In this document: in pieces, positions 11,218 to 27,180 of the stretch | How positions within the stretch are numbered: the stretch's first letter is position 1 | Layout of the letters: every line of letters begins with the position of its first letter | Sequence record: OR352953.1 | Direction: 5' to 3' (one strand) | Source of the DNA: Escherichia phage AV123 | DNA: 64,000 bases | Position numbers and translations under genes: made by a program | Notes under the pieces: generated by a model | What the model was told of the DNA's origin: nothing | What the model saw: the letters and a program-made list of their open reading frames with translations, nothing else | Databases searched by the model: none

Positions 11218-12345
11218 ATGAAATACACGATTTATGGTGATATTGTAAGTGTAAATAAAGATATGGGCGTGGAATCTAACTATCTTCCACCTGGATTCTA
11301 TACTGTTAGTCGTGATCCCCTTGGCAATTACTTTTTAAGCCGTGGTAATCTAACAGGTGTACCGGATGTTCTGTATGGTGAAACAGAAAAACGAGCAAAT
11401 CACGTTATTCGTACATTCCATCGCCGGAGTGCACAAGGTAAAAATACAGGTTTGCTCCTGACAGGCACTAAGGGCAGTGGTAAAACTATGTTAGCCAAAC
11501 TCATTAGTCGTGACCTTGTAGAAGAAGGTATTCCAACTATTATGGTTACTCAAGCCTACAGCGATGCTAATTTCATTGAACTTATTAGCAAGATCACCGA
11601 CAAAGCAGTGATTATTTTTGACGAGTTTGATAAAGTATATGAGAAGAAACAAGATCAAGAAGCACTTCTCACTTTGTTAGATGGTACTGGCAGTGGTAAT
11701 AAACTGTTTATTCTAACTAAAAACAGTGGCTTTATCTCTGAATTCTTTCTAAATCGTCCTAGTCGTGTGTTTTATAATTTTAATTATGATAAAATCTCAC
11801 TAGAAACTATGATTGACTATTTAGATAAAAACCTGGATAACAAAGCACACTTTGATAATTTCCAAAGGCTTTGGGATGTAAGTTTAGAGTTGTCCTTTGA
11901 TGTGATCCAAGGTATAGTAGAAGAACTTAATTTCTACCCTGATTTATCCTTTAAAGAATGCATCTCTATGATGGGCGTTTCTTTGGGTGGTGGTAATAAG
12001 TGGGATATCAGCAGCGTTGTTATTAATGGGAAACTTCAGAAAGTTAGCTGGGTATCTAGTTGGCATAACTTCACACCTGCAATCTTTTTAGGTGGCTCGT
12101 GCACACTAGACGTGTACTTGTCATCTCCAAGTGATGCAGACTCTAAAGAAGCCCTTGCTAATAGCTCTTACGTGGTTTTTGATGATGAAGGAGATGCTCG
12201 AATTCCATTGAATGCGACAAAAATGAAAGCAGATCTTATTACAGGCGGTAAAATCGTTGTGTTTAGTGATGATCCAGAAGATTCTTTCCGTATTGTTCTG
12301 GAACCAACTATCACCAATGGTGCAACTTTGGCAAGCGTGTTTTAA
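11218..12345 (+). CDS. AAA-type ATPase domain protein
   Basis: Walker A GTKGSGKT, Walker B IIFDEFD; 375 aa. Confidence 0.65.
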   Translation: MKYTIYGDIVSVNKDMGVESNYLPPGFYTVSRDPLGNYFLSRGNLTGVPDVLYGETEKRANHVIRTFHRRSAQGKNTGLLLTGTKGSGKTMLAKLISRDLVEEGIPTIMVTQAYSDANFIELISKITDKAVIIFDEFDKVYEKKQDQEALLTLLDGTGSGNKLFILTKNSGFISEFFLNRPSRVFYNFNYDKISLETMIDYLDKNLDNKAHFDNFQRLWDVSLELSFDVIQGIVEELNFYPDLSFKECISMMGVSLGGGNKWDISSVVINGKLQKVSWVSSWHNFTPAIFLGGSCTLDVYLSSPSDADSKEALANSSYVVFDDEGDARIPLNATKMKADLITGGKIVVFSDDPEDSFRIVLEPTITNGATLASVF

Positions 12346-12361
12346 GTAAGCCAGCAAATAA

Positions 12362-12390
12362 AAACCCGCTCCGGCGGGTTTTCTTGTATT
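12362..12390 (+). terminator. rho-independent terminator
   Basis: CCCGCTCCGGCGGG hairpin followed by TTTTCTTG. Confidence 0.6.
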
Positions 12391-12419
12391 GATGCCAGAT
12401 TTAATAAGAGGAGTAATAG

Positions 12420-13409
12420 ATGACAGCACCAAAATCATGGGAACAATATAAAGAAGAGTGTATACCAATAGCAGAGAGTAAGCAAATCCAAATCTTAGGA
12501 TGGACGGGACAATGGAAAGGGGTCCACACAAAACTTGATTTGTTGTGCCATTGTGGTTATAAATGGGATACTACAAGTATTAACAGTTTTAAATGTGGTA
12601 GCGGTTGTCCACAATGTAGGAGGAAGAATATAAGGAAGTCACAAACAATGTCCGACGATCAACATATTGCAGATTTCTTTTCTACAGGGGAATTTAAGGA
12701 AGGCACTATCTTCACTAACACAGGAACACGGGGTAAAGGATGTAGGAATATTATCTGGATGGTTGAATGTCCTGTTTGCTCTCATGATGAATATGTTCAA
12801 GCAGGTGTTTGTGATGGTAAATTTTACTCTGAAGGAGATAACCTTAAACGAGGGTATATTCCGTGTCGTTGTGGGAACTATCGGTATACAGAAGACCAGA
12901 TCACCTATAGGGTAAAAAAGGAAGTAGAAGGGAAAGGGTATGTCTGGGTAGATTGGATTACCAAACCCTCTTCTATAGGTAAGTTTAAATATCTTTGTCT
13001 TGTGCATGGTGAGCAGATAGGGAGTGCTAATAATTTATTAAGCCTCGGTCGAGGTTGTCCTATGTGTGCTGGTCATAGTCAGCAGCAGTTATATATTAAT
13101 ATTGTTAAGGATGATAATATTATAGTTGCTCTTAAGTTTGGTATAGCTAAAGATAGTGATAGGCGATTAAACATTCAAAATAGCCGTAATCTGTTTTTTA
13201 TGGAACGTATTTGTTTATATGATTTTAGCACAGTGAAACAGTGTAAGGCTGCTGAAAGAGCTATAAAGAAAAAATTAAAAACTGGTATTTTAACAGCAAG
13301 AGAGTTGAAAGACGGTCATACAGAAACAGTAAGTGTTTCTGATTTGGAAAATCTTCAAAAAATTATTACACAATATGGTGGCAAGTTAGTATACAATAAG
13401 GAGGTGTAA
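12420..13409 (+). CDS. zinc-ribbon repeat protein with C-terminal T5orf172/GIY-YIG-like domain
   Basis: four C..C pairs; C-terminal YINIV..ALKFGIAKDSDRRL fits T5orf172 pattern. Confidence 0.45.
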   Translation: MTAPKSWEQYKEECIPIAESKQIQILGWTGQWKGVHTKLDLLCHCGYKWDTTSINSFKCGSGCPQCRRKNIRKSQTMSDDQHIADFFSTGEFKEGTIFTNTGTRGKGCRNIIWMVECPVCSHDEYVQAGVCDGKFYSEGDNLKRGYIPCRCGNYRYTEDQITYRVKKEVEGKGYVWVDWITKPSSIGKFKYLCLVHGEQIGSANNLLSLGRGCPMCAGHSQQQLYINIVKDDNIIVALKFGIAKDSDRRLNIQNSRNLFFMERICLYDFSTVKQCKAAERAIKKKLKTGILTARELKDGHTETVSVSDLENLQKIITQYGGKLVYNKEV

Positions 13410-13961
13410 ATGCGGATTACTGATAAGTATGTGTTCTTCTTTTCAGCAAAAGATGAATTTAGCAACTGGTATCTATCATCTTTTATTGAACCTTTAGCAC
13501 CCAAGTATAATAATTCTATTACAAGTTCTGTTGAATTTACTTGTGTGGAACAATATATGATGTGGAGAAAAGCATGTTTGTTTTATGATTACAGTATTGC
13601 ATCTTCTATTTTAACCGGAGATCTAAGATATACAGGAGAAAAAGAACAAGCATATTATAAGCGACTAGGCAGATTAGTTAAAGATTATGATGAAGATACC
13701 TGGACTTCTTTACGGGAGAAGATTGTCAAACGTGGTTTGTATCTTAAATACACACAAAATGAAGATCTCAAAAATAAACTTATAACCTACGCAGATAAGG
13801 AGTTCGTAGAGGCAAGCCCTTATGATTCTATTTATGGTATCAAAATGGGGATGTGGGATCGTGACGTGGAAAATAAGGACTGTTGGAAAGGACAAAATCT
13901 TTTAGGAAAATGGCATACAGACCTTGCTGTTTATCTAAAAGCACAATCTGATATTTCCTGA
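13410..13961 (+). CDS. NADAR (YbiA-like) domain protein
   Basis: 183 aa; FF.S..EFSNW, VEQYMMW.KA, SPYDSIYGIKMG, NLLGK motifs recalled from NADAR/DUF1768. Confidence 0.6.
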   Translation: MRITDKYVFFFSAKDEFSNWYLSSFIEPLAPKYNNSITSSVEFTCVEQYMMWRKACLFYDYSIASSILTGDLRYTGEKEQAYYKRLGRLVKDYDEDTWTSLREKIVKRGLYLKYTQNEDLKNKLITYADKEFVEASPYDSIYGIKMGMWDRDVENKDCWKGQNLLGKWHTDLAVYLKAQSDIS

Positions 13962-14175
13962 TATTTTGAAAATTTTTATTTTTATAAAAAGGGGTGTGGG
14001 TTTCATGTACGGAAATTCACCCTCTGAATAATATATTCAGAGTAAATATTATTTTGTACTCTGTTAATAAATTATTTAATTTGTTTGTTGGATTATGATA
14101 TCTGGTTTTTAAAAGGCATACTATCTCTTAACTACTATTTATAACAGAACAGTAAAATCATTTTTATAAAAAGGA

Positions 14176-14382
14176 CAAAATTATTTAAAGTTTTTACAGA
14201 TTTTTGGATACAAATTTTGAAAATGAAAAGTTCAAGTTTGGTCAAAATTATTTAAAGTTTTTGTATGTATTTCTATCCAGATTTTGAAAATGAAAACTTC
14301 AATTTTTTAAAAATTCCCCAGTTTATTTAAAGTTTTTTTGCCTTTTTCCGTAGAAAAATCAAAAATGAAAAGTTCAATTTCG
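14176..14382. repeat. three tandem ~65 bp AT-rich direct repeats
   Basis: units at 14176, 14243, 14320 sharing ATTTAAAGTTTTT...ATTTTGAAAATGAAAAGTTCAA. Confidence 0.7.
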
Positions 14383-14400
14383 TGTTTTTATAGGTGTGTT

Positions 14401-14513
14401 AATGAGAATCATTTTCGTTTGTAAATGAGAATCATTATCATTTAACTATGTAAGTGATAATCATTCTCACTAAGAGAATGAGAATCATTAGCAAATGAGA
14501 ATTTTTCTCATTT
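14401..14513. promoter_or_regulatory. cluster of five Fur-box-like palindromes (ATGAGAAT-C-ATTCTCAT family)
   Basis: copies at 14401, 14424, 14454, 14474, 14493; one symmetric substitution from E. coli Fur core TGATAATCATTATCA. Confidence 0.5.
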
Positions 14514-14774
14514 AGAGAATAACGCGCAGGGGTGGTGTTTGTCTCGCGCTCCCGTGTCCCCTCGCCATACAATAAGAATAGCATAACCAACAACAAAAGC
14601 AAGCGATTATTTTTATCTTTACATTTCTTTACAAATTTATTTTAGACGAGCTACCAGCGATCAACCTTCCAACCAGTGCCCCCTGGTATGTTAGCCCCGC
14701 CTTTACGCCGTGGGGATGGCGCTTCCTCTTCTGTATGTAAAACAGTATAAGCCCGATCCCTGGGCTTGTCAAGA

Positions 14775-15041
14775 TTATTTTTTGTTTTCTTGCCAGGATA
14801 GGACACCTAACCAAAAATACATGTCGCCCCGCGCCCCTGGCGGGATCTTGCTTTCCCCGCCGCCACTGCAAGCCCATAGATAACCATTTGCGAACGTATC
14901 AAAATGATCTATTTCTTCCACCTTATGATCGCCCAGGTTGAGAACGGTTTCAACCTTTAAGCCCGTTGCGCTTGCTACCTGGTGCACCGTGCCGCCTTGC
15001 CAGCCTAATGAGTGCATGAGGTGTGAAGTAGTATTTGTCAT
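14775..15041 (-). CDS. hypothetical protein in GC-rich island
   Basis: 88 aa; ATG 15039-15041 with AAAGGG RBS; GC-rich unlike surroundings; overlaps a second ORF (14629-14877) in another frame. Confidence 0.35.
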   Translation of the reverse strand: MTNTTSHLMHSLGWQGGTVHQVASATGLKVETVLNLGDHKVEEIDHFDTFANGYLWACSGGGESKIPPGARGDMYFWLGVLSWQENKK

Positions 15042-15152
15042 GGTATCGCCCTTTCTTTGATGTGCGCCCTGGTTGGCGCGGTAGAAAGATAATAGCCCTT
15101 TCCTTTATAGATAGCAAGCAAAAAAGAAATGAAAAAAAGATTAAAAAAGGGG

Positions 15153-15181
15153 TTGACGGTTGGAACGATTAACGCTATTTT
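15153..15181 (+). promoter_or_regulatory. candidate sigma70 promoter
   Basis: TTGACG-17-TATTTT upstream of 15247 ORF. Confidence 0.3.
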
Positions 15182-15246
15182 GTTAGCCGTTCCAGTGTGG
15201 ATCACTGTAGCAATTGTTGTTTCAATCATTCTATAAGGCGCACACT

Positions 15247-15387
15247 ATGAGCAAGGTAATTAATCATAAAGAGTTAAACCCTACCCTTTCAATGAGTGAA
15301 TGTACCGATGGTTTTTGGCTGTATGATGATACGCGCGGTATGAATTTAGCCATGCGTGAAAAAAACAGAAGAGGCGGCGTATATTAA
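15247..15387 (+). CDS. small ORF (46 aa), possibly 5' part of a frameshifted gene
   Basis: ATG 15247; ends shortly after an A7 tract (15359-15365). Confidence 0.35.
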   Translation: MSKVINHKELNPTLSMSECTDGFWLYDDTRGMNLAMREKNRRGGVY

Positions 15388-15529
15388 AGCCCTGGGCTAC
15401 TATCAGGAGCGATTAAAGGAAGTAGAAAACAATTATAATAACCTAAAAGCAAAAGTAGATCACTTTATCAGCCAGGTAGCTCATGACGACGATGATCACT
15501 ACTGCGAACAATGTGGATCATATAGTTAA
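15356..15529 (+). CDS. small ORF in +1 frame, possibly 3' part of a frameshifted gene
   Basis: open from 15350; GTG at 15356; coiled-coil-like sequence; overlaps upstream ORF at the A7 tract. Confidence 0.35.
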   Translation: MKKTEEAAYIKALGYYQERLKEVENNYNNLKAKVDHFISQVAHDDDDHYCEQCGSYS

Positions 15530-15547
15530 AATTATCTAAAAATATTC

Positions 15548-15607
15548 TTGACAACGTTTTTTAATCTGATAAGATGTAACAAATAAGGCGGGAAGTGGTT
15601 TCCCACC
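15548..15607 (+). promoter_or_regulatory. promoter plus leader stem-loop cassette 1
   Basis: TTGACA-16-TAAGAT then GGCGGGAAGTGGTTTCCCACC hairpin, RBS, ATG 15633. Confidence 0.6.
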
Positions 15608-15632
15608 AGGCAATCAAAGAAAGGGTAACACA

Positions 15633-15995
15633 ATGAGCAAGCAAATCAATACTATCATGTTAAACCTGGTATCTTTCCGCGATGACGTGAAAAACCTTCC
15701 GCGTGATGCAGTGGATGCACGGATCGAAAGCTATCGCACACAGATCGCAACATTACCGTTAAAACGTGATCAACATGCCGCTAATATGATGCTTGATGCT
15801 ATGATTAAAAAGATGATTCAGTGTGATATTACCCTGGCTTATGAATATGCTGGCGATCTATTTGTAACATACAATAAACCCGTTCCAGGTATGAGCACAA
15901 CCGAAGAATTGCATGCCTTAAATCTGAGACAAGATGCATGGGATAACATGCGCCGTGTTATGGTATGGGTAGAAAGCGGCAAAATTTACGCGTAA
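15633..15995 (+). CDS. hypothetical early protein
   Basis: 120 aa; AAAGGG RBS. Confidence 0.6.
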   Translation: MSKQINTIMLNLVSFRDDVKNLPRDAVDARIESYRTQIATLPLKRDQHAANMMLDAMIKKMIQCDITLAYEYAGDLFVTYNKPVPGMSTTEELHALNLRQDAWDNMRRVMVWVESGKIYA

Positions 15996-15998
15996 AGA

Positions 15999-16052
15999 TT
16001 GACATTGCACTAAAACCTGATAAGCTATCTTAAAGCGGGAACTATTCCCGCT
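15999..16052 (+). promoter_or_regulatory. promoter plus leader stem-loop cassette 2
   Basis: TTGACA-16-TAAGCT then AGCGGGAACTATTCCCGCT hairpin. Confidence 0.55.
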
Positions 16053-16070
16053 TACATAGGATAAAACTTT

Positions 16071-16217
16071 ATGAAACAATATGTAATGAGTATTCACACC
16101 AAAAACGGCGCTACTGTTACGACTCCGGCACGGTTTGCACTTGTAAACCGTTGCAAAAGACTAAAACGAGAGCTAAAAAACAACCGTGCAACGGGCTTTA
16201 AACGCTGGGGAGGATAA
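16071..16217 (+). CDS. small basic protein (48 aa)
   Basis: hand-translated; AGGA RBS. Confidence 0.4.
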   Translation: MKQYVMSIHTKNGATVTTPARFALVNRCKRLKRELKNNRATGFKRWGG

Positions 16218-16219
16218 TC

Positions 16220-16480
16220 TTGTTTTTTCTAAAAGTTTTTGATAATGTGATCGCTTTTGAACATGCTACAACGTTCGACCTGGCGAGATACGCTATCAGG
16301 TTTAAAGATAATGTTTATCCCCGTGCTGGCGGCGGTTACACTATTTTTAATCATCGCAACGCGCAACTAACTGATATAACTAATCCAGATCCTGGAGTGT
16401 ATCGGATAGGCTGGCTACCGTCAAAAGATGCGGCAAGCATGTTTAAGGTATGTAAACTACTAACAGAAGAGGCGAACTAA
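16220..16480 (+). CDS. hypothetical protein (TTG start)
   Basis: 86 aa; GGAGGA RBS 5 nt before TTG; no in-frame ATG near N-terminus. Confidence 0.4.
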   Translation: MFFLKVFDNVIAFEHATTFDLARYAIRFKDNVYPRAGGGYTIFNHRNAQLTDITNPDPGVYRIGWLPSKDAASMFKVCKLLTEEAN

Positions 16481-16481
16481 C

Positions 16482-17036
16482 ATGGGGCGTGAATATGTGA
16501 TCCAGTCCTGGGTAAAGCATGATGCTAATGATCCGCGCATAATACCAGATGACATGATCGATCACATGGTAGGGTATAGCGGGGAGCAGATAGGAAATCG
16601 AGCGGCAAAGAGCAACGGCAACACCAGGACGCGATCCGTTCGCCCTGGATGGCTGGCAAATGGTAACGCTGACATTGCAAGCGCCGCAGATCCAAGCGAT
16701 GACGCTAAAAATAATCCCTTATACAGTATTGATCCGGCTTTTAAGGTGTTGGAAGAGTATCCCGCTAAATTAGCCGCACTAGATAAAGCATACGAAGAAA
16801 AACGGGTGGCATGGACTGTATACAACACCGCTAAAATGGTGCTAGATGCAAAATTGATTAAAGCCCAGGAGAAGATCAATAAACTTGTTACCATAGCGCG
16901 AGAGGAAGACCAGGACGACCAGGAGGAAGAGGAAGAAATCATGCCTAACCTGGAAGAGGAAGAGATCCAGCCATACACGCCGACAGAAGAGGAAAAAATA
17001 CAAGCCTTAAAAAATTATAAAAATTGTATTGTGTAA
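16482..17036 (+). CDS. hypothetical protein with strongly acidic C-terminus
   Basis: 184 aa; EEDQDDQEEEEEIMPNLEEEEIQ tail. Confidence 0.55.
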   Translation: MGREYVIQSWVKHDANDPRIIPDDMIDHMVGYSGEQIGNRAAKSNGNTRTRSVRPGWLANGNADIASAADPSDDAKNNPLYSIDPAFKVLEEYPAKLAALDKAYEEKRVAWTVYNTAKMVLDAKLIKAQEKINKLVTIAREEDQDDQEEEEEIMPNLEEEEIQPYTPTEEEKIQALKNYKNCIV

Positions 17037-17117
17037 GGCTTGACATATGCAAACAAGCCCCGTAATATGTACCACATAAAGCGGGGCAACGCCCCATAAG
17101 GTGAAATAAAAAATCAC

Positions 17118-17145
17118 TTGACACCTGAAATCAGTAAGCTATAAT
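17118..17145 (+). promoter_or_regulatory. sigma70 consensus promoter
   Basis: TTGACA-16-TATAAT. Confidence 0.6.
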
Positions 17146-17182
17146 GCTTATATAGATTGAAACATTACTAAGGAATAAAAGC

Positions 17183-17362
17183 ATGGCTATTATTGCAAAG
17201 ACTGAGATCGTAGGTTTAGATTCTATCATCCTGGCATATGAGGAAGCTATAGAAATGTATGTGGTTTCCTATGGTGATTATATCCGTGAATATAAATCTA
17301 TTGATCTAGCTTTTGAATGCTATATTCGCCAGGTCAATAAAGCATATGATGATTATCGTTAA
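17183..17362 (+). CDS. small hypothetical protein (59 aa)
   Basis: hand-translated; AAGGAA RBS. Confidence 0.45.
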   Translation: MAIIAKTEIVGLDSIILAYEEAIEMYVVSYGDYIREYKSIDLAFECYIRQVNKAYDDYR

Positions 17363-17457
17363 AAGTTTTAGTCTTGTGCTATTGACAACGAACGATAGTA
17401 CAAGCATAATAACTTTTATCGGGAATACTCCTAACTAATCAAAAGAGATTAAAGACT

Positions 17458-17823
17458 ATGGCTAAAAATATCAATGTTTCTGCTTATGCTACCCTGGCTA
17501 ACACTGCTAAAATTGAACTATCCAGCATTGAAGCGGTACATATTAGCGCCCGTCGCTGGTTTCAAAAGTCTTATGGTAATACTTATTTCTCTTTGATGGT
17601 TGACGTTGAGATCGGCGGTAAACTGATTGAAGTCGTTAACGTTCCGTTTCAATATGGTTATGGTGATCATTTTGATACCGTTGCCCTAGAAGAGTTTAGC
17701 AAGGTTATCAACCTGGAAGGTAAAGAGTTTTCAAATTATGCATACCTTTCCCGTTTTTGCCGTGATAATGGGATCGCTGTATACAGTCATGCAAGCGATG
17801 TTAAACGTAAAAAAGATTTATAA
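17458..17823 (+). CDS. hypothetical early protein
   Basis: 121 aa; own promoter TTGACA-18-CATAAT at 17382. Confidence 0.55.
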   Translation: MAKNINVSAYATLANTAKIELSSIEAVHISARRWFQKSYGNTYFSLMVDVEIGGKLIEVVNVPFQYGYGDHFDTVALEEFSKVINLEGKEFSNYAYLSRFCRDNGIAVYSHASDVKRKKDL

Positions 17824-17829
17824 AAAGCA

Positions 17830-17887
17830 TTGACAGCACGAATAAAAAGCATATAATACTTATATCGAGAGCGGGAATAGTTCCCGC
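17830..17887 (+). promoter_or_regulatory. promoter plus leader stem-loop cassette 3
   Basis: TTGACA-16-TATAAT then GCGGGAATAGTTCCCGC. Confidence 0.6.
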
Positions 17888-17911
17888 CTCACTGAAAAAG
17901 AGATTAACATC

Positions 17912-18151
17912 ATGGCTAAATCTAAAATGTTCTTAGGTCACAAAAACAAAACTCATTGGAATGTAAGCCTTTGGATCAACAACGATGAAGGTTTTTATAA
18001 TCTTGCGCGTGAATTTATCGCAGCTAACACCAATAAGAATGACGCAGCGCGGGATATGATGTTATTTCTTGAAAGTATGGATCAAGATAAAACGCCAGAC
18101 GGATTCAAGTTCAGTAAAACCGCGATCCGTGCCGCTATGGTTGGAATGTAA
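17912..18151 (+). CDS. hypothetical early protein
   Basis: 79 aa. Confidence 0.55.
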   Translation: MAKSKMFLGHKNKTHWNVSLWINNDEGFYNLAREFIAANTNKNDAARDMMLFLESMDQDKTPDGFKFSKTAIRAAMVGM

Positions 18152-18246
18152 AGGAGGTATAAAAATGAAACATCGTTCGACCTATCTCACAAAACGTTTT
18201 AGCTTAGATCATAAGTTAGGCTATTACGGAAGAAATAGAAAATAAT

Positions 18247-18306
18247 TTGACACTGTTTAAAATTCTGGTATAGTTTATCACATAGGGCGGGAAATGGTTT
18301 CCCGCC
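18247..18306 (+). promoter_or_regulatory. promoter plus leader stem-loop cassette 4
   Basis: TTGACA-16-TATAGT then GGCGGGAAATGGTTTCCCGCC. Confidence 0.6.
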
Positions 18307-18328
18307 AAATCAAAGAAAGGTTATCATT

Positions 18329-18556
18329 ATGGCTATCGTTATTGTTCGCGTATCCGGTACGGTTGGAAGCTCCCAGGTAGTAGCAGTTATCACAGAGAAG
18401 AAAGGGGATGATCTTCACTCCTCCTTGAATAGCTGGGCGGTCGCTAACTTTGGGCAATGGTCGAGCGTTGAGTACATCGAATCCTACCAGGTGCCAACGA
18501 TTAGCCTAACCGATCTAAATGTTGATCGCTTGTTGTGCCTGGATCAATTAAACTAA
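18329..18556 (+). CDS. hypothetical early protein
   Basis: 75 aa. Confidence 0.55.
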   Translation: MAIVIVRVSGTVGSSQVVAVITEKKGDDLHSSLNSWAVANFGQWSSVEYIESYQVPTISLTDLNVDRLLCLDQLN

Positions 18557-18564
18557 AAATAATA

Positions 18565-18620
18565 TTGACAAGATAACTAAAATCAGTAAAATGTAATGCA
18601 TAGGGCGGCAATAGTGCCGC
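18565..18620 (+). promoter_or_regulatory. promoter plus leader stem-loop cassette 5
   Basis: TTGACA-16-TAAAAT then GCGGCAATAGTGCCGC. Confidence 0.55.
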
Positions 18621-18643
18621 TCCTAGTGAGAGAGATTATCAAG

Positions 18644-18859
18644 ATGGCTAATATCCGCACACTGTTAAAAAATGCAAGTCAAGTTTTATTTTCAGATGAC
18701 GAGTATTTCAACAAAGACATTACAGGCGTGAAAAATTTAAAAGACGTGAAGGATGTTATCGGTATCCGTGGATCTTTACGTAAAGGTGACATATACGGTA
18801 ACAAGGTGCAATATAAACTGTCAAAAGATTATGATTTTACTTTGACATTTATTTCATAA
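18644..18859 (+). CDS. hypothetical early protein
   Basis: start reset to ATG 18644 downstream of the hairpin. Confidence 0.5.
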   Translation: MANIRTLLKNASQVLFSDDEYFNKDITGVKNLKDVKDVIGIRGSLRKGDIYGNKVQYKLSKDYDFTLTFIS

Positions 18860-18864
18860 AACCG

Positions 18865-18926
18865 CTTGCAATACTGCAAAAATAAAGTAAACTGTATTCA
18901 TCAAGGCGGTGGAATAGCCCACCGCC
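18865..18926 (+). promoter_or_regulatory. promoter plus leader stem-loop cassette 6
   Basis: TTGCAA -35-like, weak -10, GGCGGTGGAATAGCCCACCGCC hairpin. Confidence 0.4.
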
Positions 18927-18949
18927 TAACAAAGAGAAGAGGAAACATC

Positions 18950-19120
18950 ATGATCACTTTCGCTACCCGTGAAGCCGCTCGCAACGTTGCACGTAAAGTT
19001 AACGCCGCCAACCTGGGCGCTACGCTTAAAGCCCCGGTAAAAGATGAATCAGGTAAATGGATCTTCCCTGGTCTGCGTCACGCTGATAAGCTGGGAACGT
19101 TAACGCTAAAAAATAAATAA
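18950..19120 (+). CDS. small hypothetical protein
   Basis: start reset to ATG 18950 after hairpin; AGAGGA RBS. Confidence 0.5.
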   Translation: MITFATREAARNVARKVNAANLGATLKAPVKDESGKWIFPGLRHADKLGTLTLKNK

Positions 19121-19127
19121 AATCCGC

Positions 19128-19186
19128 TTGACAGTAGCATCATTTATAAGTAAAGTAACAACAACGGCGGGAAATGGTTTCCCGCC
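19128..19186 (+). promoter_or_regulatory. promoter plus leader stem-loop cassette 7
   Basis: TTGACA-17-TAAAGT then GGCGGGAAATGGTTTCCCGCC. Confidence 0.6.
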
Positions 19187-19206
19187 ATCAATAAAGAGAT
19201 AAGATC

Positions 19207-19566
19207 ATGAAATCAGTAAAAGCAATTAAAACTTACATTGTGTCGGCTATTTCTTTTGATGGTACTACAACCGAAAAAGAAAAGATCACCGAACTGATGC
19301 GCCGTTTTAACTCTGAATACTGGTATCCCGATAATCAAAAACGTTACAATTATAACGTGATCAAGGCGATAGCCTCATGGTTACAAGGTTTACCGTCAGA
19401 CATTAACATCGCCTTTGATTATAACGAGATTGATCATTTATTAATTGAATGGAAGTACATAAAAGAAACAAGCAAAGAAACAACCGTTACCCGTGAGCGG
19501 GAAAATTATTGGTTATATATTGCAAGCATGATCGTAATCCTGGCAAAACAGCATAACGTGGCGTAA
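19207..19566 (+). CDS. hypothetical early protein
   Basis: 119 aa. Confidence 0.55.
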   Translation: MKSVKAIKTYIVSAISFDGTTTEKEKITELMRRFNSEYWYPDNQKRYNYNVIKAIASWLQGLPSDINIAFDYNEIDHLLIEWKYIKETSKETTVTRERENYWLYIASMIVILAKQHNVA

Positions 19567-19581
19567 TTAAGAGGAAGAAAC

Positions 19582-19719
19582 ATGAACGCATCACAGCAGA
19601 TCGAAAAATTCAACCGCAGCAAGGCGCGTAAAGATTGGAACGAAGAGATCACCAAAAAAGGCGACAAGCGGAACAAAACAAAGAGAGATCGCAGCACAAA
19701 AAGATACTGGAACGAATAA
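19582..19719 (+). CDS. small lysine/arginine-rich protein (45 aa)
   Basis: hand-translated; AAGAGGAAG RBS. Confidence 0.45.
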   Translation: MNASQQIEKFNRSKARKDWNEEITKKGDKRNKTKRDRSTKRYWNE

Positions 19720-19723
19720 CAAA

Positions 19724-19747
19724 AAAGGGCGCAATAAGCGCCCTTTT
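19724..19747 (+). terminator. rho-independent terminator
   Basis: GGGCGCAATAAGCGCCC then TTTTAGC. Confidence 0.55.
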
Positions 19748-19838
19748 AGCTTATATAGAGGCTTGTTACCCATAGGCAATGGTAACGCCAGGATAAGCCT
19801 ATAAATCAACGTTAGACGGCTTTACAGGAGCTTTAAAA

Positions 19839-20021
19839 ATGAAATTAGACGAAATAAGCAAGGCACTAGCCCAGGGGCAAAGGTTATGCGCCCGATATCG
19901 TGATCAATATGGCTTCATAACTAGCGGCGTGATCCTGGGGATTGAAGGCAATAAGATTTTTATTGACACGTTGAAAAACGTTGTATATAGTGACAATATA
20001 ATCTCAATAAAACATATATGA
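19839..20021 (+). CDS. hypothetical protein
   Basis: 60 aa; AGGAG RBS. Confidence 0.45.
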   Translation: MKLDEISKALAQGQRLCARYRDQYGFITSGVILGIEGNKIFIDTLKNVVYSDNIISIKHI

Positions 20022-20029
20022 GGCAAGAA

Positions 20030-20431
20030 ATGAAAAAATTATTGATCGCTGGTTTAATCTCTTTTGGCATGGTTGGAACATCTAGCGCGGCGATATCCTC
20101 CACAGTAGCAGAATTAAGCGCCGTTGATGCAATGGAAAACGTCATGCTTATTAATAATGCGATCCCCGATGAAATCATGGAGGATTCACACATGATCGCT
20201 TATGGTGCTGTTACACAACTAACGGCAAAAATAGATAAATCTATTGTTAACGGCTTAAATGAAGATGTGCCATGTGAAATTATTACCAGTGTGCTGACTA
20301 CTCAAAATTTTACGCCGTGGTTAAAAAGTATTCAAAAAGTACACAGTACAGCCGCAGATCGTAGCAATGAAAAACTAGTGTCAGCACTTGCAACGTATAC
20401 CCTAGCAAAATGCACCGAGATAAAAGATTGA
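20030..20431 (+). CDS. secreted protein with signal peptide
   Basis: MKKLLIAGLISFGMVGTSSAA; start reset to ATG 20030. Confidence 0.55.
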   Translation: MKKLLIAGLISFGMVGTSSAAISSTVAELSAVDAMENVMLINNAIPDEIMEDSHMIAYGAVTQLTAKIDKSIVNGLNEDVPCEIITSVLTTQNFTPWLKSIQKVHSTAADRSNEKLVSALATYTLAKCTEIKD

Positions 20432-20478
20432 CAACATAGAAAGCACGTTATAAGATACACACAACAAAGGAGAACTAC

Positions 20479-20781
20479 ATGAACGGCATAGCTAAAACGT
20501 TTTTTCTTTTTTCTGGTGTAAATGATCCATCAATAAAAGTCGATAGTGTAAAAGAAAACAATACTATCACCGCTAAATTGTTTCAAGATGAAACAAATAA
20601 CGTGCTAATCATTAATCTTAAAGAAATAACGAAAGGTTATTATACTATTGCTTACCATGCAATCTATCGTGCTGGTACTAGTGAGGAAGTGCAAACAAGC
20701 AACAACGAAAGCGCGGCACTACCTGGTGATCTGGTGCTGGGCGTTATCAGTTTAATTGTCAATGATTTTTTTAAGGAGTAA
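20479..20781 (+). CDS. hypothetical protein
   Basis: 100 aa; promoter TTGACA-17-TAAGAT at 20428. Confidence 0.55.
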   Translation: MNGIAKTFFLFSGVNDPSIKVDSVKENNTITAKLFQDETNNVLIINLKEITKGYYTIAYHAIYRAGTSEEVQTSNNESAALPGDLVLGVISLIVNDFFKE

Positions 20782-20785
20782 AACC

Positions 20786-20881
20786 ATGCCCTATTTACAT
20801 TTATTTTTCGGTATCTTATTGACAGGATCTTTTTTCTTCTGTATGCTTGTTTCTATTGTAAACCACGTTTTAAGACATTAA
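20786..20881 (+). CDS. hydrophobic micro-protein (31 aa)
   Basis: hand-translated; strong TAAGGAG RBS. Confidence 0.4.
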   Translation: MPYLHLFFGILLTGSFFFCMLVSIVNHVLRH

Positions 20882-20890
20882 GGAAACAGC

Positions 20891-21010
20891 ATGAAAATTA
20901 TTCCCGTACAATATAGCGTAATAAATCCAGCATACGAGGAAGGAAGGAAAACAAGCATGGCTTTATGTTGTATTGCTACTATAGCCATGTTGTTATACAT
21001 TGTGTTTTAA
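20891..21010 (+). CDS. hydrophobic micro-protein (39 aa)
   Basis: hand-translated; AAGGAAA RBS. Confidence 0.35.
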   Translation: MKIIPVQYSVINPAYEEGRKTSMALCCIATIAMLLYIVF

Positions 21011-21110
21011 TAGGTTTTATAGTTGTACGCTTTAAAGGCTTGACAATTTTTTGTTATGCTTTAAACTATATCTTGAAAACGGCAAAGGCCGCAAACAAAA
21101 GGGTAAAATT

Positions 21111-21434
21111 ATGAAATCTGTGATCGGTGTTTATTTGGATAACTCTGATTTTTTCTATCATCGCGCGCGTTTACTTGATGCTATTGAAATGATAGAATCA
21201 GGCTTTAAAGAGTATCGCCTTGCACATGATGACCTGGAAGCATTACAGGGCAATAGTGTTTTTACATTGCAAGCGAAAGCACTATGCAAAAGCCGGATCG
21301 AGATTGCAAGTAAAAAGATACAACGCGGCATGTCCTGGTTGCGCACCGCAGAAATCAACATGGGGCAATGGTACGGCGAAAACTTAGAAAATAAACGCAC
21401 TTTTGTAAATGTAGAAAATCTTAAAGATTATTGA
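21111..21434 (+). CDS. hypothetical protein
   Basis: start reset to ATG 21111. Confidence 0.5.
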   Translation: MKSVIGVYLDNSDFFYHRARLLDAIEMIESGFKEYRLAHDDLEALQGNSVFTLQAKALCKSRIEIASKKIQRGMSWLRTAEINMGQWYGENLENKRTFVNVENLKDY

Positions 21435-21496
21435 TTGACAGCACACCTAACAGATAGTATATTGTATCTCATAGAGCGGGGAAATGGTTTCCCCGC
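21435..21496 (+). promoter_or_regulatory. promoter plus leader stem-loop cassette 8
   Basis: TTGACA-17-TATATT then GCGGGGAAATGGTTTCCCCGC. Confidence 0.6.
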
Positions 21497-21516
21497 CTTA
21501 ACAGAAGAGATAAGCT

Positions 21517-21801
21517 ATGAAGATCACAAAAGCACTTTCCAACTATGCAGCACGTCGCGGATTATGTTTAACCGTTGAAAATTTAGGGAAAGAAGATTTT
21601 TTGTGCTTTTGGGAGCTTGAGAATGATAATGAGTGGATCTTCTCTTATTCTATCTGCGAAGATCAAAACGGTTGTTTATTAACCTGGCGCGGTAATATCT
21701 ATCTACCGGAAGAAATCAAAGAAGAATTACCAGGCACGATCATGACTGAGAAACAGCTTAAGGAAGTGATCAATTTTGTAGGGCAAAACATTAAAAAATA
21801 A
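21517..21801 (+). CDS. hypothetical early protein
   Basis: 94 aa. Confidence 0.55.
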   Translation: MKITKALSNYAARRGLCLTVENLGKEDFLCFWELENDNEWIFSYSICEDQNGCLLTWRGNIYLPEEIKEELPGTIMTEKQLKEVINFVGQNIKK

Positions 21802-21802
21802 T

Positions 21803-21862
21803 TTGACACTAGGCAAACAACGTAGTAAAGTTTATCACATAGGGCGGGAAATGGTTTCCCGC
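21803..21862 (+). promoter_or_regulatory. promoter plus leader stem-loop cassette 9
   Basis: TTGACA-17-TAAAGT then GGGCGGGAAATGGTTTCCCGC. Confidence 0.6.
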
Positions 21863-21885
21863 TCACAACAGAAGAGAAACAAATC

Positions 21886-22056
21886 ATGATCCCAACTATG
21901 TTTTATGTATCGCGCAAAGGTCACAATATTTTTTGGTCTGAAGATTTAAATGAAGCCATGACGTTTGCCCGTGATCGTGTTGCTATCGGTGGCGTTAACA
22001 TTACTGTAACCGATGAAAACGGCATTGAATACTATAACGGCGACGATGAAGAGTAA
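21886..22056 (+). CDS. small hypothetical protein (56 aa)
   Basis: hand-translated; follows cassette 9. Confidence 0.45.
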   Translation: MIPTMFYVSRKGHNIFWSEDLNEAMTFARDRVAIGGVNITVTDENGIEYYNGDDEE

Positions 22057-22063
22057 TTAATAA

Positions 22064-22084
22064 GGCGGGGGAGTATTCCCCGCC
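22064..22084 (+). promoter_or_regulatory. leader stem-loop 10 (no obvious promoter)
   Basis: GGCGGGGGAGTATTCCCCGCC just upstream of RBS of 22104 gene. Confidence 0.5.
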
Positions 22085-22103
22085 GTCAATAAAGAGGTAA
22101 ATC

Positions 22104-22373
22104 ATGAAAATATCTTTGGACGTTGCAATCAAGGCCATTGAATCCGGTTACACCCTGGTAAAAGATGATAAGGCTAAAACCGTGCACCACGTTAACAAGG
22201 AAACAGGCGAAAGCATGATCACATATAAAACCGCCTATTTTCTCCAATCAGTAGCAGATCCGCGCGTACAACGCCAGGTTACGGCGGCTATTGCTAAAAA
22301 ATTATGTGCTTTACAGGGTACAAGTTTTAACGAGATCGCCCCGTGTTTTGACTGGTCGAGCTTGAAAAAATAG
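22104..22373 (+). CDS. hypothetical early protein
   Basis: 89 aa. Confidence 0.55.
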   Translation: MKISLDVAIKAIESGYTLVKDDKAKTVHHVNKETGESMITYKTAYFLQSVADPRVQRQVTAAIAKKLCALQGTSFNEIAPCFDWSSLKK

Positions 22374-22374
22374 T

Positions 22375-22430
22375 TTGACAACAATTATAAATCGGGTAGA
22401 ATGTATTTCGTAGGGCGGCAATAGTGCCGC
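22375..22430 (+). promoter_or_regulatory. promoter plus leader stem-loop cassette 11
   Basis: TTGACA-17-TAGAAT then GGCGGCAATAGTGCCGC. Confidence 0.6.
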
Positions 22431-22453
22431 TCACAACTAAAAGAGAAATCAGC

Positions 22454-22648
22454 ATGGCGCTTAAAAAACTAACAAGCAATACTCGTTGGGATGAAATCGA
22501 CGGAGAAGTTTACATTTTCGCCCGTAAACCAGGTGATCAAAAATGGTCTAAGGCTTTTACTTGCCACCCTGCAACAATAGACCTGATAAAAAGGGAAGGT
22601 TTACGTGAAGCGGTAGCAAGAAGTTTACTGATCCCTTATAAAAAATAG
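22454..22648 (+). CDS. hypothetical early protein
   Basis: start reset to ATG 22454 after hairpin. Confidence 0.5.
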   Translation: MALKKLTSNTRWDEIDGEVYIFARKPGDQKWSKAFTCHPATIDLIKREGLREAVARSLLIPYKK

Positions 22649-22649
22649 T

Positions 22650-22711
22650 TTGACAATACGCGGTTATCTGGTAAAGTGTACGACATAGGGCGGGGCAATA
22701 AGGCAACGCCC
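22650..22711 (+). promoter_or_regulatory. promoter plus leader stem-loop cassette 12
   Basis: TTGACA-16-TAAAGT then GGGCG...CGCCC hairpin. Confidence 0.55.
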
Positions 22712-22729
22712 ATTAATGAGGGTAGAATC

Positions 22730-22834
22730 ATGTTAGAGAAAATTTTCACGGTTGTAATAGTTGGCCTGGCGTTATCGGTTGGATTGGTTGCAACTATGGC
22801 TAACATGATCCTATCTTCCCACGGTATTGGATAA
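22730..22834 (+). CDS. hydrophobic micro-protein (34 aa)
   Basis: hand-translated; GAGGG RBS. Confidence 0.4.
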   Translation: MLEKIFTVVIVGLALSVGLVATMANMILSSHGIG

Positions 22835-22844
22835 GGTGAATCAA

Positions 22845-23060
22845 ATGATCACGAATAAGACAGGTAAAACAGAATTTTTACGCGGCTTGCAAATAGGTAA
22901 ACCTGAGATCTGGCATTGCACTAAATCCGCGCATAATGAAATGAAAGATTTTACCGCTACTTTACAACGTGTTAAAATATCTATCACGCAGAAAAAAGCC
23001 TTGTTAGTAGTAGAAAACGAGATACCGCAAACCATTATTATTGTCGAGCGTACAGCATGA
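22845..23060 (+). CDS. hypothetical protein
   Basis: start reset from TTG 22827 to ATG 22845. Confidence 0.45.
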   Translation: MITNKTGKTEFLRGLQIGKPEIWHCTKSAHNEMKDFTATLQRVKISITQKKALLVVENEIPQTIIIVERTA

Positions 23061-23443
23061 AAACTGAAATCATTATTGAAATCATCAACGGTTATAAAGA
23101 AGCCTTTATTTTTGCTGAATCAGCCAGGGATCATGAAGGCTATTTTATTGATAACTTAGACGATTATGATTTTTCAGATCAAGCCCATCAGCGGATCATT
23201 CATGACGTAGCGGCTTATTGTGATGCCAATGATGCTGCTATCTCTGAGGCAATGAGCGACGGCGCTACAGCAAACCAGATCGGGAATGATTTACATTTTA
23301 CCCGTAACGGTCACGGCGTAGGCTTTTGGGATCGCCCTGAAATATACACTACTAACACCGCCAACCGCCTAACAAATGCAGCTAAATTAATGCCATCGGT
23401 GCATGCTTACATTGGTGAAGATAATTTGATTTATATTGAATAA
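23057..23443 (+). CDS. hypothetical protein
   Basis: 128 aa; ATG overlaps upstream stop. Confidence 0.55.
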   Translation: MKTEIIIEIINGYKEAFIFAESARDHEGYFIDNLDDYDFSDQAHQRIIHDVAAYCDANDAAISEAMSDGATANQIGNDLHFTRNGHGVGFWDRPEIYTTNTANRLTNAAKLMPSVHAYIGEDNLIYIE

Positions 23444-23449
23444 AAAGTA

Positions 23450-23508
23450 TTGACACCGATCCCCAATATGTTATTATTTACCACGTAGGCGGGAAATGGT
23501 TTCCCGCC
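23450..23508 (+). promoter_or_regulatory. promoter plus leader stem-loop cassette 13
   Basis: TTGACA-16-TATTAT then GGCGGGAAATGGTTTCCCGCC. Confidence 0.6.
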
Positions 23509-23531
23509 AGGTAATCAAAAAGGTAAATACT

Positions 23532-23921
23532 ATGCGCAACCTGGTTTCTGTTTCTAACGTTGAAAAATTCCAATCTTTACAGGGTATCGTTAACAACGTA
23601 GCGCCTTTTTTAGTCAATGGCTTGATTGCAAAGATGAAAAATAAACATCATGCGGCATGGTCTGCTTACTGCTTTGATAATGATGAAAAAGCGGCTGAAA
23701 TGATGTTAAATATGCTGTTAGACAGTGTAGAATCATCTTTACCGGAAAACATCGCAGAAGAGATCACCTATCGTTATAATATGGCGATCACTTACCAGGA
23801 GGTTGCGCAATTTAATATGATGGATGATGACGAACAACAGGATCAGGAAATGTTCTGGGAGTATGCAGATCGTCAATCGGCTTTTGATGAAAAGTTAGCG
23901 ATGTATTATAACGAATATTAA
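23532..23921 (+). CDS. hypothetical acidic protein
   Basis: start reset to ATG 23532; track start lay inside the hairpin. Confidence 0.55.
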   Translation: MRNLVSVSNVEKFQSLQGIVNNVAPFLVNGLIAKMKNKHHAAWSAYCFDNDEKAAEMMLNMLLDSVESSLPENIAEEITYRYNMAITYQEVAQFNMMDDDEQQDQEMFWEYADRQSAFDEKLAMYYNEY

Positions 23922-23933
23922 TACACGGTAAAA

Positions 23934-24365: not shown

Positions 24366-24384
24366 TCAATATAGGAATCATATC

Positions 24385-25074: not shown

Positions 25075-25087
25075 ATAACATTTCAAA

Positions 25088-25392: not shown

Positions 25393-25801
25393 CTTAACTT
25401 AAGACCATCTAACCTATAAAATAATAAGTTATCTAACTAAATTAAAACTAATTATCTCACCTTTATTTATAACTTACTGTTACTATCTCATTGATAACAT
25501 TGTATTAAACAATAATAACTAATATAAATCATTACTAAGCTAAATATAATCTATCTAACCCTTAAAACTACAATTATAATCTATCGAATTGTTGCACAAA
25601 GTAACTATTAAATTGTTAGTAACATTACTAAATAATTCACATCCTATCTATTTATGATCTAATCTTTACCTTCCTATCTATTACTTAGATAATCATTTCA
25701 TACAGTAACCATTTCATGTAGTAATCATTCCATACAATAACTATAACAAGAAATATAATTCGCAAGCGTATCATTAGCAGCCTATGCCGGACACATAGGC
25801 G

Positions 25802-25948
25802 GCTAATAATAACGCAACTACACACCCCACATAATAACCATCACCGATAGTTATTATTTGTGCTTATGTAGCTTGCAACAATTGCAAGCGCAACAATATA
25901 CTAGGGTATATTGTATCCCTTACATTGTTGCGGTGCGTTATTATTAGC
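25802..25948. repeat. long-range inverted repeat with internal palindromes
   Basis: GCTAATAATAACGCAAC at 25802 versus GTTGCG(GTG)CGTTATTATTAGC at 25927; inner ACAATATAC..GTATATTGT. Confidence 0.6.
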
Positions 25949-26241: not shown

Positions 26242-26456
26242 AATGATAATCATTATCAGCTATCTTCCACGGGTGGCACTATTTCACACCAGATCATTTC
26301 ATTTGGCAAGGTGTATATAGATGTTTAGACTTGCCAAGCCATTGATTTCCTTAGAATTTATCTGTTTTGTTGTGAGTAGTACCTTTCTTGCTTAGAAAAT
26401 AATCAAAAGTCTTATAAGTCATTGAATGATAATACAAATGATAATTATTCTCATTG
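26242..26456. promoter_or_regulatory. Fur-box-like sites
   Basis: AATGATAATCATTATC at 26242 (15/15 to Fur core) and GAATGATAAT..ATGATAATTATTCTCATTG at 26424. Confidence 0.5.
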
Positions 26457-26814
26457 ATATTTGAGGGGGACGGTCGGCAGAAATCGGGGGGTGCTGAAAA
26501 TCGCGTTAAGCACCTCTCGCAAGCGAGCAGTATTTTGCGGCAAGTTATTGATATTATTGACTTTACGCTTATGAAAAGGGGGTGTGTCGAAATAAATCGG
26601 GTATACCGGAAAATTTTTGTGGCATAGATATTTATTTGTCTATATTATGTACAAAGGGGTGTGTTAAAAATAATAGGTATATATAGAATAATTGATAGGG
26701 AATATCTATACTAATTCCTCCATTAATGATATTCCTATGCTACTGCTCTTGTAATAGATGAAAAGACGCTGTATGATGTGTGGCATGAAACGTAAACTTA
26801 TAAAGGAGTCTGAT

Positions 26815-27180
26815 ATGTGTGTTCCTCTTAGCAGTCCACTGCTGTTAGAATTTTACAAAGCATGGATGCAAGATCATTCCTCAATGCATCGTGAGAATGT
26901 TGGTTTGTGTATTTGCCTTATGGATTATCTGGCAACCACTATGTCAAAGAAAAAACCTACGCGAGAAGATATAGAACATTTCAAAATGGTTCGCAGTAAA
27001 ACGCTGGAAGAGATGAAATTGCAATTCACGTGTGCTGGGCTATCCTCCTTCCTGCCCTTTAATGATGATCTTCTGTGTTATGAAGATGAAGGTAAGAAAC
27101 ATTCTTGCCATACTAACCCAGGGAGATTGCAGTGGGTGAAAGACAGACTCGAAGATGCAAATAATGCTTGCATTGAATAG
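26815..27180 (+). CDS. paralog family A protein (copy 1)
   Basis: LLEFY, GLCICL, PFN, RLQWVKDR motifs shared with 28961 and 29953; start reset to ATG 26815 (AAAGGAG RBS). Confidence 0.6.
   Translation: MCVPLSSPLLLEFYKAWMQDHSSMHRENVGLCICLMDYLATTMSKKKPTREDIEHFKMVRSKTLEEMKLQFTCAGLSSFLPFNDDLLCYEDEGKKHSCHTNPGRLQWVKDRLEDANNACIE

Follow-up and report, generated by a model that had tools for sequence, protein, structure and literature searches.

A G-rich word restricted to two non-coding hubs

Within the 64,000-nt stretch of Escherichia phage AV123 analysed here (record OR352953.1; hereafter the window), the G-rich 11-mer AAAGGGGTGTG was confirmed as a real, non-random word that is restricted to two non-coding hubs, where it constitutes the 3' core of a roughly 40-nt module. 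Alignment with related phages revealed that the deeply conserved unit is this two-island module of the second hub, made up of GATATT and a G-run, and not the identity of the 11-mer. As to function, the layout of the modules leads us to propose, tentatively, that they act as promoter/leader units.

Megablast searches placed the window in Justusliebigvirus, the phi92-like myophages of Stephanstirmvirinae, with 97-98% identity to VEcB, SD2 and phiWec187 across positions 12000-16000 and 100% identity to VEcB and AMO3598 at 13800-14200. The closest relative, VEcB, has a complete genome of 147,702 bp, and the genome size of the phage is ~147 kb. Both hubs are located in a plus-strand gene block that spans about 8.6 to 38.2 kb. 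Hub 1 (13962-15632) directly follows a YbiA-like N-glycosidase gene, and hub 2 (25075-26814) extends from a T4 gp30.8-like gene, the end of which is marked by a strong terminator (25089-25109), to the first downstream gene (26815..27180, plus strand), which is preceded by the Shine-Dalgarno (SD) sequence AAAGGAG at 26803-26809. In relatives, the two regions bear no or almost no annotated genes, and together they make up 2.25% of the VEcB genome.

An earlier note on this sequence had located the 11-mer at about 13986, 26575 and 26653. All three copies were verified on the plus strand, two of them exact (13988-13998 and 26653-26663) and the third, AAGGGGGTGTG, with a single mismatch (26576-26586). 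An inverted copy missing from that list, termed M, was further found at 25821-25831 (8-mer at 25821-25828). When up to one mismatch was allowed, the three matches in the 64-kb window compared with 0.75 expected, and 3 of 100 shuffled sequences also reached this number, so that the count in the window is by itself of marginal significance. It is the location of the copies, and not this count, that renders the observation convincing. Counted on both strands of the window, GGGGTGTG (an 8-mer) and GGGTGTG (a 7-mer) have four copies each, all of them in the hubs. Likewise, the complete VEcB genome contains three exact copies of the 11-mer against 0.06 expected under a first-order Markov model, its four GGGGTGTG copies all map within the hubs, and no other gene or gene cluster is preceded by the motif. 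The earlier note had staked its proposal on the frequency of the motif and on its conserved position in relatives. Frequency in VEcB spoke for the motif, and positional conservation gave a mixed answer, as the hub-2 G-run is kept across genera but neither the hub-1 copy (AACAAAGGCGTCAC in Phapecoctavirus) nor the TGTG half is.

The 11-mer belongs to a two-island module

Alignment of the four plus-strand copies uncovered a common order of elements, namely (T/A)GATATT(T), a variable AT-rich spacer of 21-25 nt ending in an A-rich stretch, and the G-run G4-6(T/C)G, which begins 28-31 nt after the start of GATATT (13960, 26456, 26550 and 26627). A search of both strands with the pattern GATATT.{19,26}GGGG retrieved exactly four sites in the window and, across the entire VEcB genome, again four. 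These are the same four sites, all on the plus strand and all in hubs, and simulated genomes yielded a mean of 1.07. Although the pattern was derived after the data had been seen, its confinement to the hubs and to a single strand is an independent fact. The suggestion of an element shared by both hubs is thus upheld by its genome-wide confinement in VEcB and extended by its embedding in a larger conserved module.

The hub-1 module, S1 (13958..13998, plus strand), carries GATATT at 13960-13965, overlapping the TGA (13959-13961) with which the YbiA-like gene ends, followed by a 25-nt AT-rich spacer and the core AAAGGGGTGTG at 13988-13998. The remaining three, also on the plus strand, are arranged in tandem 150-360 nt upstream of the start at 26815, within the last ~360 untranslated nucleotides of hub 2. 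S0' (26454..26493) contains TTGATATT, which adjoins a Fur-box-like palindrome, with GATATT at 26456-26461 and the G-run GGGGGGTG at 26486-26493. In S2 (26548..26586), TTGATATTAT provides GATATT at 26550-26555 upstream of the core AAGGGGGTGTG at 26576-26586, and in S3 (26625..26663), TAGATATTT provides it at 26627-26632 upstream of AAAGGGGTGTG at 26653-26663. A conserved sequence, AAAAATAAT.GGTATATAT.G.ATAATTGATAGG, follows the S3 core. Spacing between modules is irregular: the distances measure 94 and 77 nt in this phage and 91 and 127 nt in the Klebsiella phages, and S2 and S3 of Phapecoctavirus are 59 nt apart.

Conservation was assessed in a sample of about 20 sequences. For hub 2, it comprised the Phapecoctavirus phages SKA64, ZCKP1, TSP7_1, nepoznato, 536P1 and phiWec181, the Klebsiella phages FKP3, phi1_175008 and KP13-26, Citrobacter phage Tr1, and metagenomic contigs that were obtained through homologues of the upstream gp30.8-like protein (55-80% amino-acid identity). 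Pattern scans of IMG/VR and metagenomes contributed only 3+3 additional loci, and a search with the gene downstream of hub 2 yielded no further ones. Two to three tandem modules occupy the same place in every hub-2-bearing lineage examined, that is, in Justusliebigvirus, Phapecoctavirus, the phiWec181 type, the Klebsiella phages, Citrobacter Tr1 and six metagenomic lineages. In the S2 alignment of 11 lineages, every sequence agrees on GATATT, a single T, a single A and GGG, and two further G are nearly invariant. Variation is seen in the spacer, in the TGTG tail and in the AT block downstream (with GGGGGTGTC, GGGGGCGTC, GGGGGTGGC and GGGGGCATC among the variants). The invariance of GATATT and the G-run persists where the neighbouring protein is only 55-80% identical. 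Hence, the 11-mer as written in the earlier note gave way, as the conserved entity, to the G-run plus the upstream GATATT. In hub 1, GATATTTT is kept in Phapecoctavirus and in an IMG/VR contig (L008), but the G-run is not; its lack of conservation outside the genus makes the word common to both hubs a Justusliebigvirus feature. Apart from the modules, the block GAAAATCGCGTTAAGCACC (26496..26514, plus strand), located right after S0', is nearly invariant in all hub-2-bearing lineages examined, even where the neighbouring sequence varies freely.

These data bear on the decidedly unlikely possibility that the identity of the 11-mers has no function, the hub-2 copies being remnants of a ~100-nt tandem duplication and the hub-1 copy having arisen by chance or been acquired recently. 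Such an origin would fit the grouping by the repeat finder of 26463, 26576 and 26653 into one 25-nt family with 72-76% identity, the lack of S1 conservation in the sister genus, the unconserved TGTG part and the marginal count in the window alone. It is difficult to reconcile with the genome-wide excess of the 11-mer and with the clustering of all four 8-mers in so small a fraction of the genome, and decaying duplicates would not be expected to keep GATATT and the G-run invariant across lineages.

Evidence for and against promoter/leader units

The position on the coding strand between a terminator and a gene start, a candidate −10 of the TGn type and an SD-like G-run devoid of a start codon are the features by which we favour, tentatively, the reading of the modules as tandem, weak promoter/leader units lacking a −35 element, the transcripts of which would carry an orphan SD-like G-run. 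According to this proposal, GATATT/TATTTT would act as the −10 region, with G at −14 and a full TGn in S0', S1 and S2, and the −10 of S0' would abut the Fur-box-like operator. Arithmetic on a −10 assigned to GATATT places the G-run ~16-20 nt into the predicted transcript. There, at the RNA level, it might serve as an orphan SD-like element bound by 30S ribosomal subunits or by a regulator, and the operon's long untranslated leader would be stabilised or gated by it.

Indeed, no canonical TTGACA promoter was found between the terminator at 25089-25109 and the start at 26815. S0', S1 and S2 read TGATATT(T/A/G), that is, a TGn extension followed by TATTTT, TATTAT or TATTTG. S1 (TGATATTTT) and S2 (TGATATTAT) fit TGn together with A2 and T6 of an extended −10, S0' (TGATATTTG) lacks T6, and S3 (AGATATTTA) retains only the G at −14; this G and TATT are invariant across the 11 lineages. 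With regard to the second island, the combination of an A-rich stretch and a G-run is the SD form of real genes in this phage (AAGGGG-N6-8-ATG at 9706, 11206 and 52551). Pairing of S1, S0', S2 and S3 with the 13-nt 3' tail of 16S rRNA (GAUCACCUCCUUA) was computed at −10.8 to −17.1 kcal/mol, compared with −4.5 to −10.4 kcal/mol for four real ribosome binding sites (RBSs). In no lineage is an ATG, GTG or TTG within reach of S0', S2 or S3, for which an RBS with its own start codon was excluded. At S1, the ATG at +8 opens only an unconserved open reading frame (ORF) of 8-14 codons. This mini-ORF (MYGNSPSE, 14005..14031, plus strand), which starts 8 nt after the S1 GGGGTG, counts 8 codons in this phage as well as in VEcB and inny, and 14 in Paula and PD06; it is absent as such in Phapecoctavirus and is probably not a real gene.

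A number of findings weigh against this reading. Between the hubs (15500-24400), the plus strand contains ~20 promoters that match TTGACA-16/17-TAnnnT perfectly and have A-rich tracts upstream. In most of them, a conserved hairpin, GGCGGGAAATGGTTTCCCGCC, lies about 8-10 nt past the −10. Early transcription of the phage is therefore plainly sigma70-driven, and the S modules differ from these evident early promoters with their perfect TTGACA and 5' hairpin. A consensus promoter scan of both hubs listed none of the four modules, the exception being a weak 9/12 candidate, GTGGCA-16/18-TATATT/TATTAT, just upstream of S3. No −35 at 16-18 nt is conserved across lineages, and GATATT shares only 4 of its 6 positions with TATAAT. 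The likeness of the G-run to an SD is not statistically distinctive either, because a 9-nt anti-SD with a −10 kcal/mol cut-off retrieved 55 orphan SD-like sites in VEcB, only 4 of them in hubs, and S1-S3 fail this cut-off. The base after the G-run is C in 4 of the 11 lineages, which would break the extra anti-SD pair, and the hub-1 G-run is degenerate in Phapecoctavirus (AAAGGCGTCAC) and in a more distant contig (AATACGTCAAC). Finally, every observation is equally compatible with a protein-binding site in duplex DNA.

Promoters of other types were also considered. The earlier note had entertained a promoter for a non-sigma70 polymerase, and this idea was not supported, since four copies in ~148 kb, three of them stacked before one gene and one after a stop codon in VEcB, do not constitute a temporal promoter class. 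The 262 annotated VEcB features include neither an RNA polymerase or sigma factor of the phage's own nor a promoter-recognition factor, a survey of annotation that left the many hypothetical proteins unsearched, and the flanks of the four copies contain no fixed promoter-like hexamer at a fixed downstream distance. Assignments of GATATT or TTGATA as a −35, of the G-run as a −10 or as a discriminator with TATAAA, TATGAA or TATTAT as the −10, and readings of the minus strand were all rejected, as none yielded both a spacing and hexamers that are conserved across lineages. The promoter idea of the earlier note is easiest to defend in a form that we still regard as very unlikely, in which the G-run is the −35-region box of a promoter that depends on an activator or is non-canonical in some other way, and a −10 (TATATA or TATACC) lies 15-17 nt downstream of S2 and S3. 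This arrangement is legible as GGGGTG-16-TATATA at S3 and at the S2 of the Klebsiella phages, and as GGGGTG-17-TATACC at S2, and the gene at 26815 lacks a canonical promoter. Most lineages, however, read GGGTA(TA)CGGGG downstream, with no T6 and sometimes no TATA, and S0' and S1 have no such −10. The small number of copies, absent from the front of other genes, and the annotation of VEcB noted above speak against it as well.

Modules as possible DNA sites and the surrounding repeats

The main rival to the promoter/leader reading is a protein site in duplex DNA. In this scenario, which we consider possible although rather unlikely, a sequence-specific protein, for instance an early regulator of the phage, a host factor or a factor for replication or packaging, would recognise the G-run, alone or together with GATATT some three helical turns from it, and would organise both hubs. 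Such a site would account for the genome-wide confinement to the hubs, for two invariant islands 28-31 bp apart, for an inverted copy in the same hub and for lineage-specific variants that are common to M and the S copies, and it would be in keeping with the other content of the hubs, namely 16-nt repeats resembling iterons, the Fur-like palindromes and a stretch rich in AT. Conversely, the motif has no dyad symmetry, intermodule spacing is irregular and unconserved, and all direct copies follow the orientation of the genes, which is not required of a DNA site. Moreover, M has no G-run in 7 of 11 lineages, and the analysis identified no candidate binding protein.

The G-rich motif itself is unrelated to the 19-bp Fur box consensus GATAATGATAATCATTATC. 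Fur-like palindromes (AATGAGAATCATTCTCATT) with 2-5 mismatches were nevertheless located at 14398-14516, 25319-25397, 26239-26257 and 26434-26458, the one at 26239 with only two. Matches to GATAATGATAATCATTATC with up to 5 mismatches numbered 37, compared with 7.1 in shuffled sequences, and nearly all of those with up to 4 mismatches fall in the two hubs. The box at 26434 abuts the GATATT of S0', and boxes are conserved in other genera. Their sequence suggests control by iron and Fur, or titration of Fur by a lytic phage. Hub 2 also contains three tandem 16-nt repeats (TAATCATTTCATACAG, 25690-25753) with a conserved AATCATT core, as in the Fur-like palindromes. These repeats end a very AT-rich stretch of ~360 nt (25400-25760), just upstream of a multi-hairpin element, and in sequence the combination looks like iterons next to a DNA-unwinding region.

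The flanking position of the hubs raises one more possibility, in our opinion extremely improbable: the modules would mark the edges of an immediate-early block and serve processes at the DNA level, for example terminase recognition at long terminal repeats or a T5-like injection-stop region. In T5 and SPO1, pre-early genes reside in long terminal repeats that have repeat-rich non-coding DNA at their boundaries. The hubs flank the ~10-kb cluster with the ~20 perfect sigma70 promoters, S1 being at its left edge and S0'-S3 at its right, and hub 2 contains the first or last base of many deposited Stephanstirmvirinae genomes. The starts of these records, however, lie at scattered distances from the hairpin anchor (+354 to +971 nt) and probably reflect a convention of annotators, not mapped ends. 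The searched literature yielded no paper in which the termini of these phages had been mapped.

The inverted copy and possible pairing between RNA elements

The inverted copy M (25821..25831, minus strand) reads CACACCCCACA on the plus strand and TGTGGGGTGTG on the minus strand, and it forms part of the multi-hairpin element of hub 2 (25780..25948). This element is composed of a P1 hairpin (GCCTATG-CCGGACA-CATAGGC), a 15-bp outer stem (25802-25816/25934-25948) and three inner hairpins; 9 of its 46 predicted pairs display compensatory changes and the P1 loop CCGGACA is invariant. M lies in an unpaired internal loop, ACACACCCC, just after CTAC of stem P3, which pairs with GTAG. Its C-run is present in four lineages and absent in seven, in which the loops read, for example, AACTACACCATTTCACTC. 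Several variants are common to M and the S sites, namely GGGGTGTGT (M, S2 and S3 of Justusliebigvirus), TGGGGTGT (M and S3 of SKA64), GGGGGTGT (M and S3 of phiWec181) and GGGGTGG (M and S2 of the Klebsiella phages). Since the wobble evidence is mixed, it does not assign the transcribed strand of the multi-hairpin element, and action as RNA or as DNA would both be possible. The element has no match in Rfam.

Other elements accompany S1 in hub 1. Downstream of it, an AT-rich hairpin (CTCTGAAT/ATTCAGAG) with a T-rich tail forms a terminator-like structure on the plus strand (14022..14056); at the same place, Phapecoctavirus retains a hairpin with a different stem (GGCTCCTAC/GTAGAGAGCC) and conserves the tail ATTATTTTGT. 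Positions 14160-14380 contain three tandem repeats of ~70 bp (ATTTTGAAAATGAAAAGTTCAA...AAATTATTTAAAGTTTTT), also conserved in Phapecoctavirus, the equivalent of which bears a repeat_region annotation in phages inny and alia. An ultra-conserved non-coding element then occupies 14520-14790 on the minus strand, with its own near-consensus promoter, TTGACA-17-TATACT (14772 to 14744), and a second promoter-like unit after this promoter and the hairpins. We traced it in 234 phage records of Stephanstirmvirinae and Vequintavirinae (phiTE, CR9, KB57, 4MG, SalP219 and an Erwinia phage among them) at 68-99% identity, mostly unannotated. It folds a hairpin with a C-rich loop, CGCC-A(U)CCCCA-GGCG, and a TACCGG/CCGGTA stem with one compensatory change. 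As nothing in Rfam matches it, the element is likely to be a small phage RNA that is novel. Rfam 15 gave no match anywhere in the window at gathering thresholds, and permissive scans of the hubs returned only sub-threshold matches at chance level.

These C-rich loops invite an explanation that we consider unlikely, in which the G-runs are RNA targets of a loop, be it ACACACCCC of the 25780-25948 element or the CCCC apical loop of the hub-1 RNA at ~14700. The nine covarying pairs and the unpaired state of the C-run agree with it, as do the coding-strand location of all G-runs and the conserved hairpin of the hub-1 element. Within ~1 kb on either side, S3 or S2 was the best partner of the loop in 13 of the 14 genomes that could be tested (−14 to −22 kcal/mol), and complementarity over 7-9 nt is retained with different sequences in four lineages. 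Nonetheless, 7 of 11 lineages have no C-run in the loop yet keep the S modules, and a Justusliebigvirus variant (L012) alters the loop with no compensating change. Chance matches of a loop made only of C and A to a word made only of G and T are, besides, not rare, the wobble evidence for the transcribed strand is mixed, and the hub-1 loop could pair over only 4-5 nt. A broader scheme, which we judge highly improbable, would turn both hubs into one RNA-based control circuit across Stephanstirmvirinae, with the SD-like G-runs of tandem and possibly iron/Fur-gated promoters being titrated or masked by C-rich loops in the same two candidate RNAs of the phage, thereby setting the switch from the immediate-early to the next block.

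Two further structures involving the G-runs were set aside. Hairpins that the G-run could form through GGGUG/CACCC (S1) or GGUGCU/AGCACC (S0') are not conserved elsewhere, and at S2 and S3 the G-run lacks a partner. An origin based on a G-quadruplex or R-loop was considered for the clustered G5...G3...G4 in the S2 of many lineages, where the loops are too long for a canonical quadruplex.

Significance and comparison with known systems

Phages of the phi92-like and phAPEC8-like groups are widely isolated and are candidates for therapy, and their regulation is essentially unstudied. The searched literature offered nothing relevant on promoters, transcriptomes, termini, non-coding RNAs or origins of these phages, and the rV5 paper notes only a 'non-coding' box and sigma70-like promoters. 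What had been a vague shared G-rich word is now a defined and deeply conserved two-island module in the untranslated DNA that separates the immediate-early block from the operon after it. Should they prove to be iron-gated promoter/leader units, the modules would tie early development of the phage to the iron status of the host; if they are protein sites, they would identify the operator of a regulator. On present evidence, the module is a modest, ordinary-looking regulatory repeat with a proposed function, and we judge the conserved RNA-like elements nearby to be more striking than the 11-mer motif.

In an informal comparison with known consensus sequences, none of the DnaA box, Chi, CRP, IHF, Fis, sigmaE, sigma54, RfaH ops, marbox, TyrR, oriC 13-mers and T7-primase GTC sites fitted all copies. 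The closest likeness within the favoured promoter/leader reading is to the tandem early sigma70 promoters of lytic coliphages, including those of the extended −10 type (TGnTATAAT) that can dispense with a −35. The modules have in common with them the stacking of units on the coding strand before an early operon, an invariant −10-like hexamer with G at −14 and a full TG in three of the four copies. They differ from these promoters by the missing −35 and by a −10 that matches at 4 of 6 positions. In addition, the position of S0', abutting a Fur-like operator, resembles that of iron-regulated host promoters.

For the G-run, the counterpart is STAB-SD of Bacillus thuringiensis cryIIIA, an orphan SD in a 5' leader that was defined in Gram-positive bacteria and belongs with the ribosome standby or stabiliser sites. 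Like STAB-SD, the A-rich stretch and G-run of the modules complement the 16S 3' end, have no start codon within reach (S0', S2 and S3) and occupy a predicted position early in a leader. Unlike it, their SD-likeness is not statistically distinctive in this genome, and binding by 30S subunits is putative.

Two phage systems parallel the possible pairing between RNA elements. In the P4 CI RNA, seqB pairs with seqA and seqC, and c4 of P1 and P7 is an antisense RNA. The structured element described here likewise exposes an unpaired stretch complementary to two to three sites further along the same strand, but its C-run is missing in 7 of 11 lineages, and these are lytic phages that lack an immunity region. 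With iterons and the repeats to which origin proteins or regulators bind in phage and plasmid control regions, the modules share a non-palindromic sequence and clustering in an AT-rich hub near other repeats and a structured element. They depart from iterons in their irregular spacing, in the conservation of only ~12 of ~45 positions and in the lack of an adjacent initiator gene, and we do not class them as such. Finally, the promoter-early stem-loop (PeSL) cassettes of T4-type phages are repeated promoter and leader cassettes of early regions. In the present phage, it is the TTGACA promoter/stem-loop family between the hubs that resembles them, whereas the S modules, with neither TTGACA nor a 5' hairpin, make up a separate family limited to the hubs.

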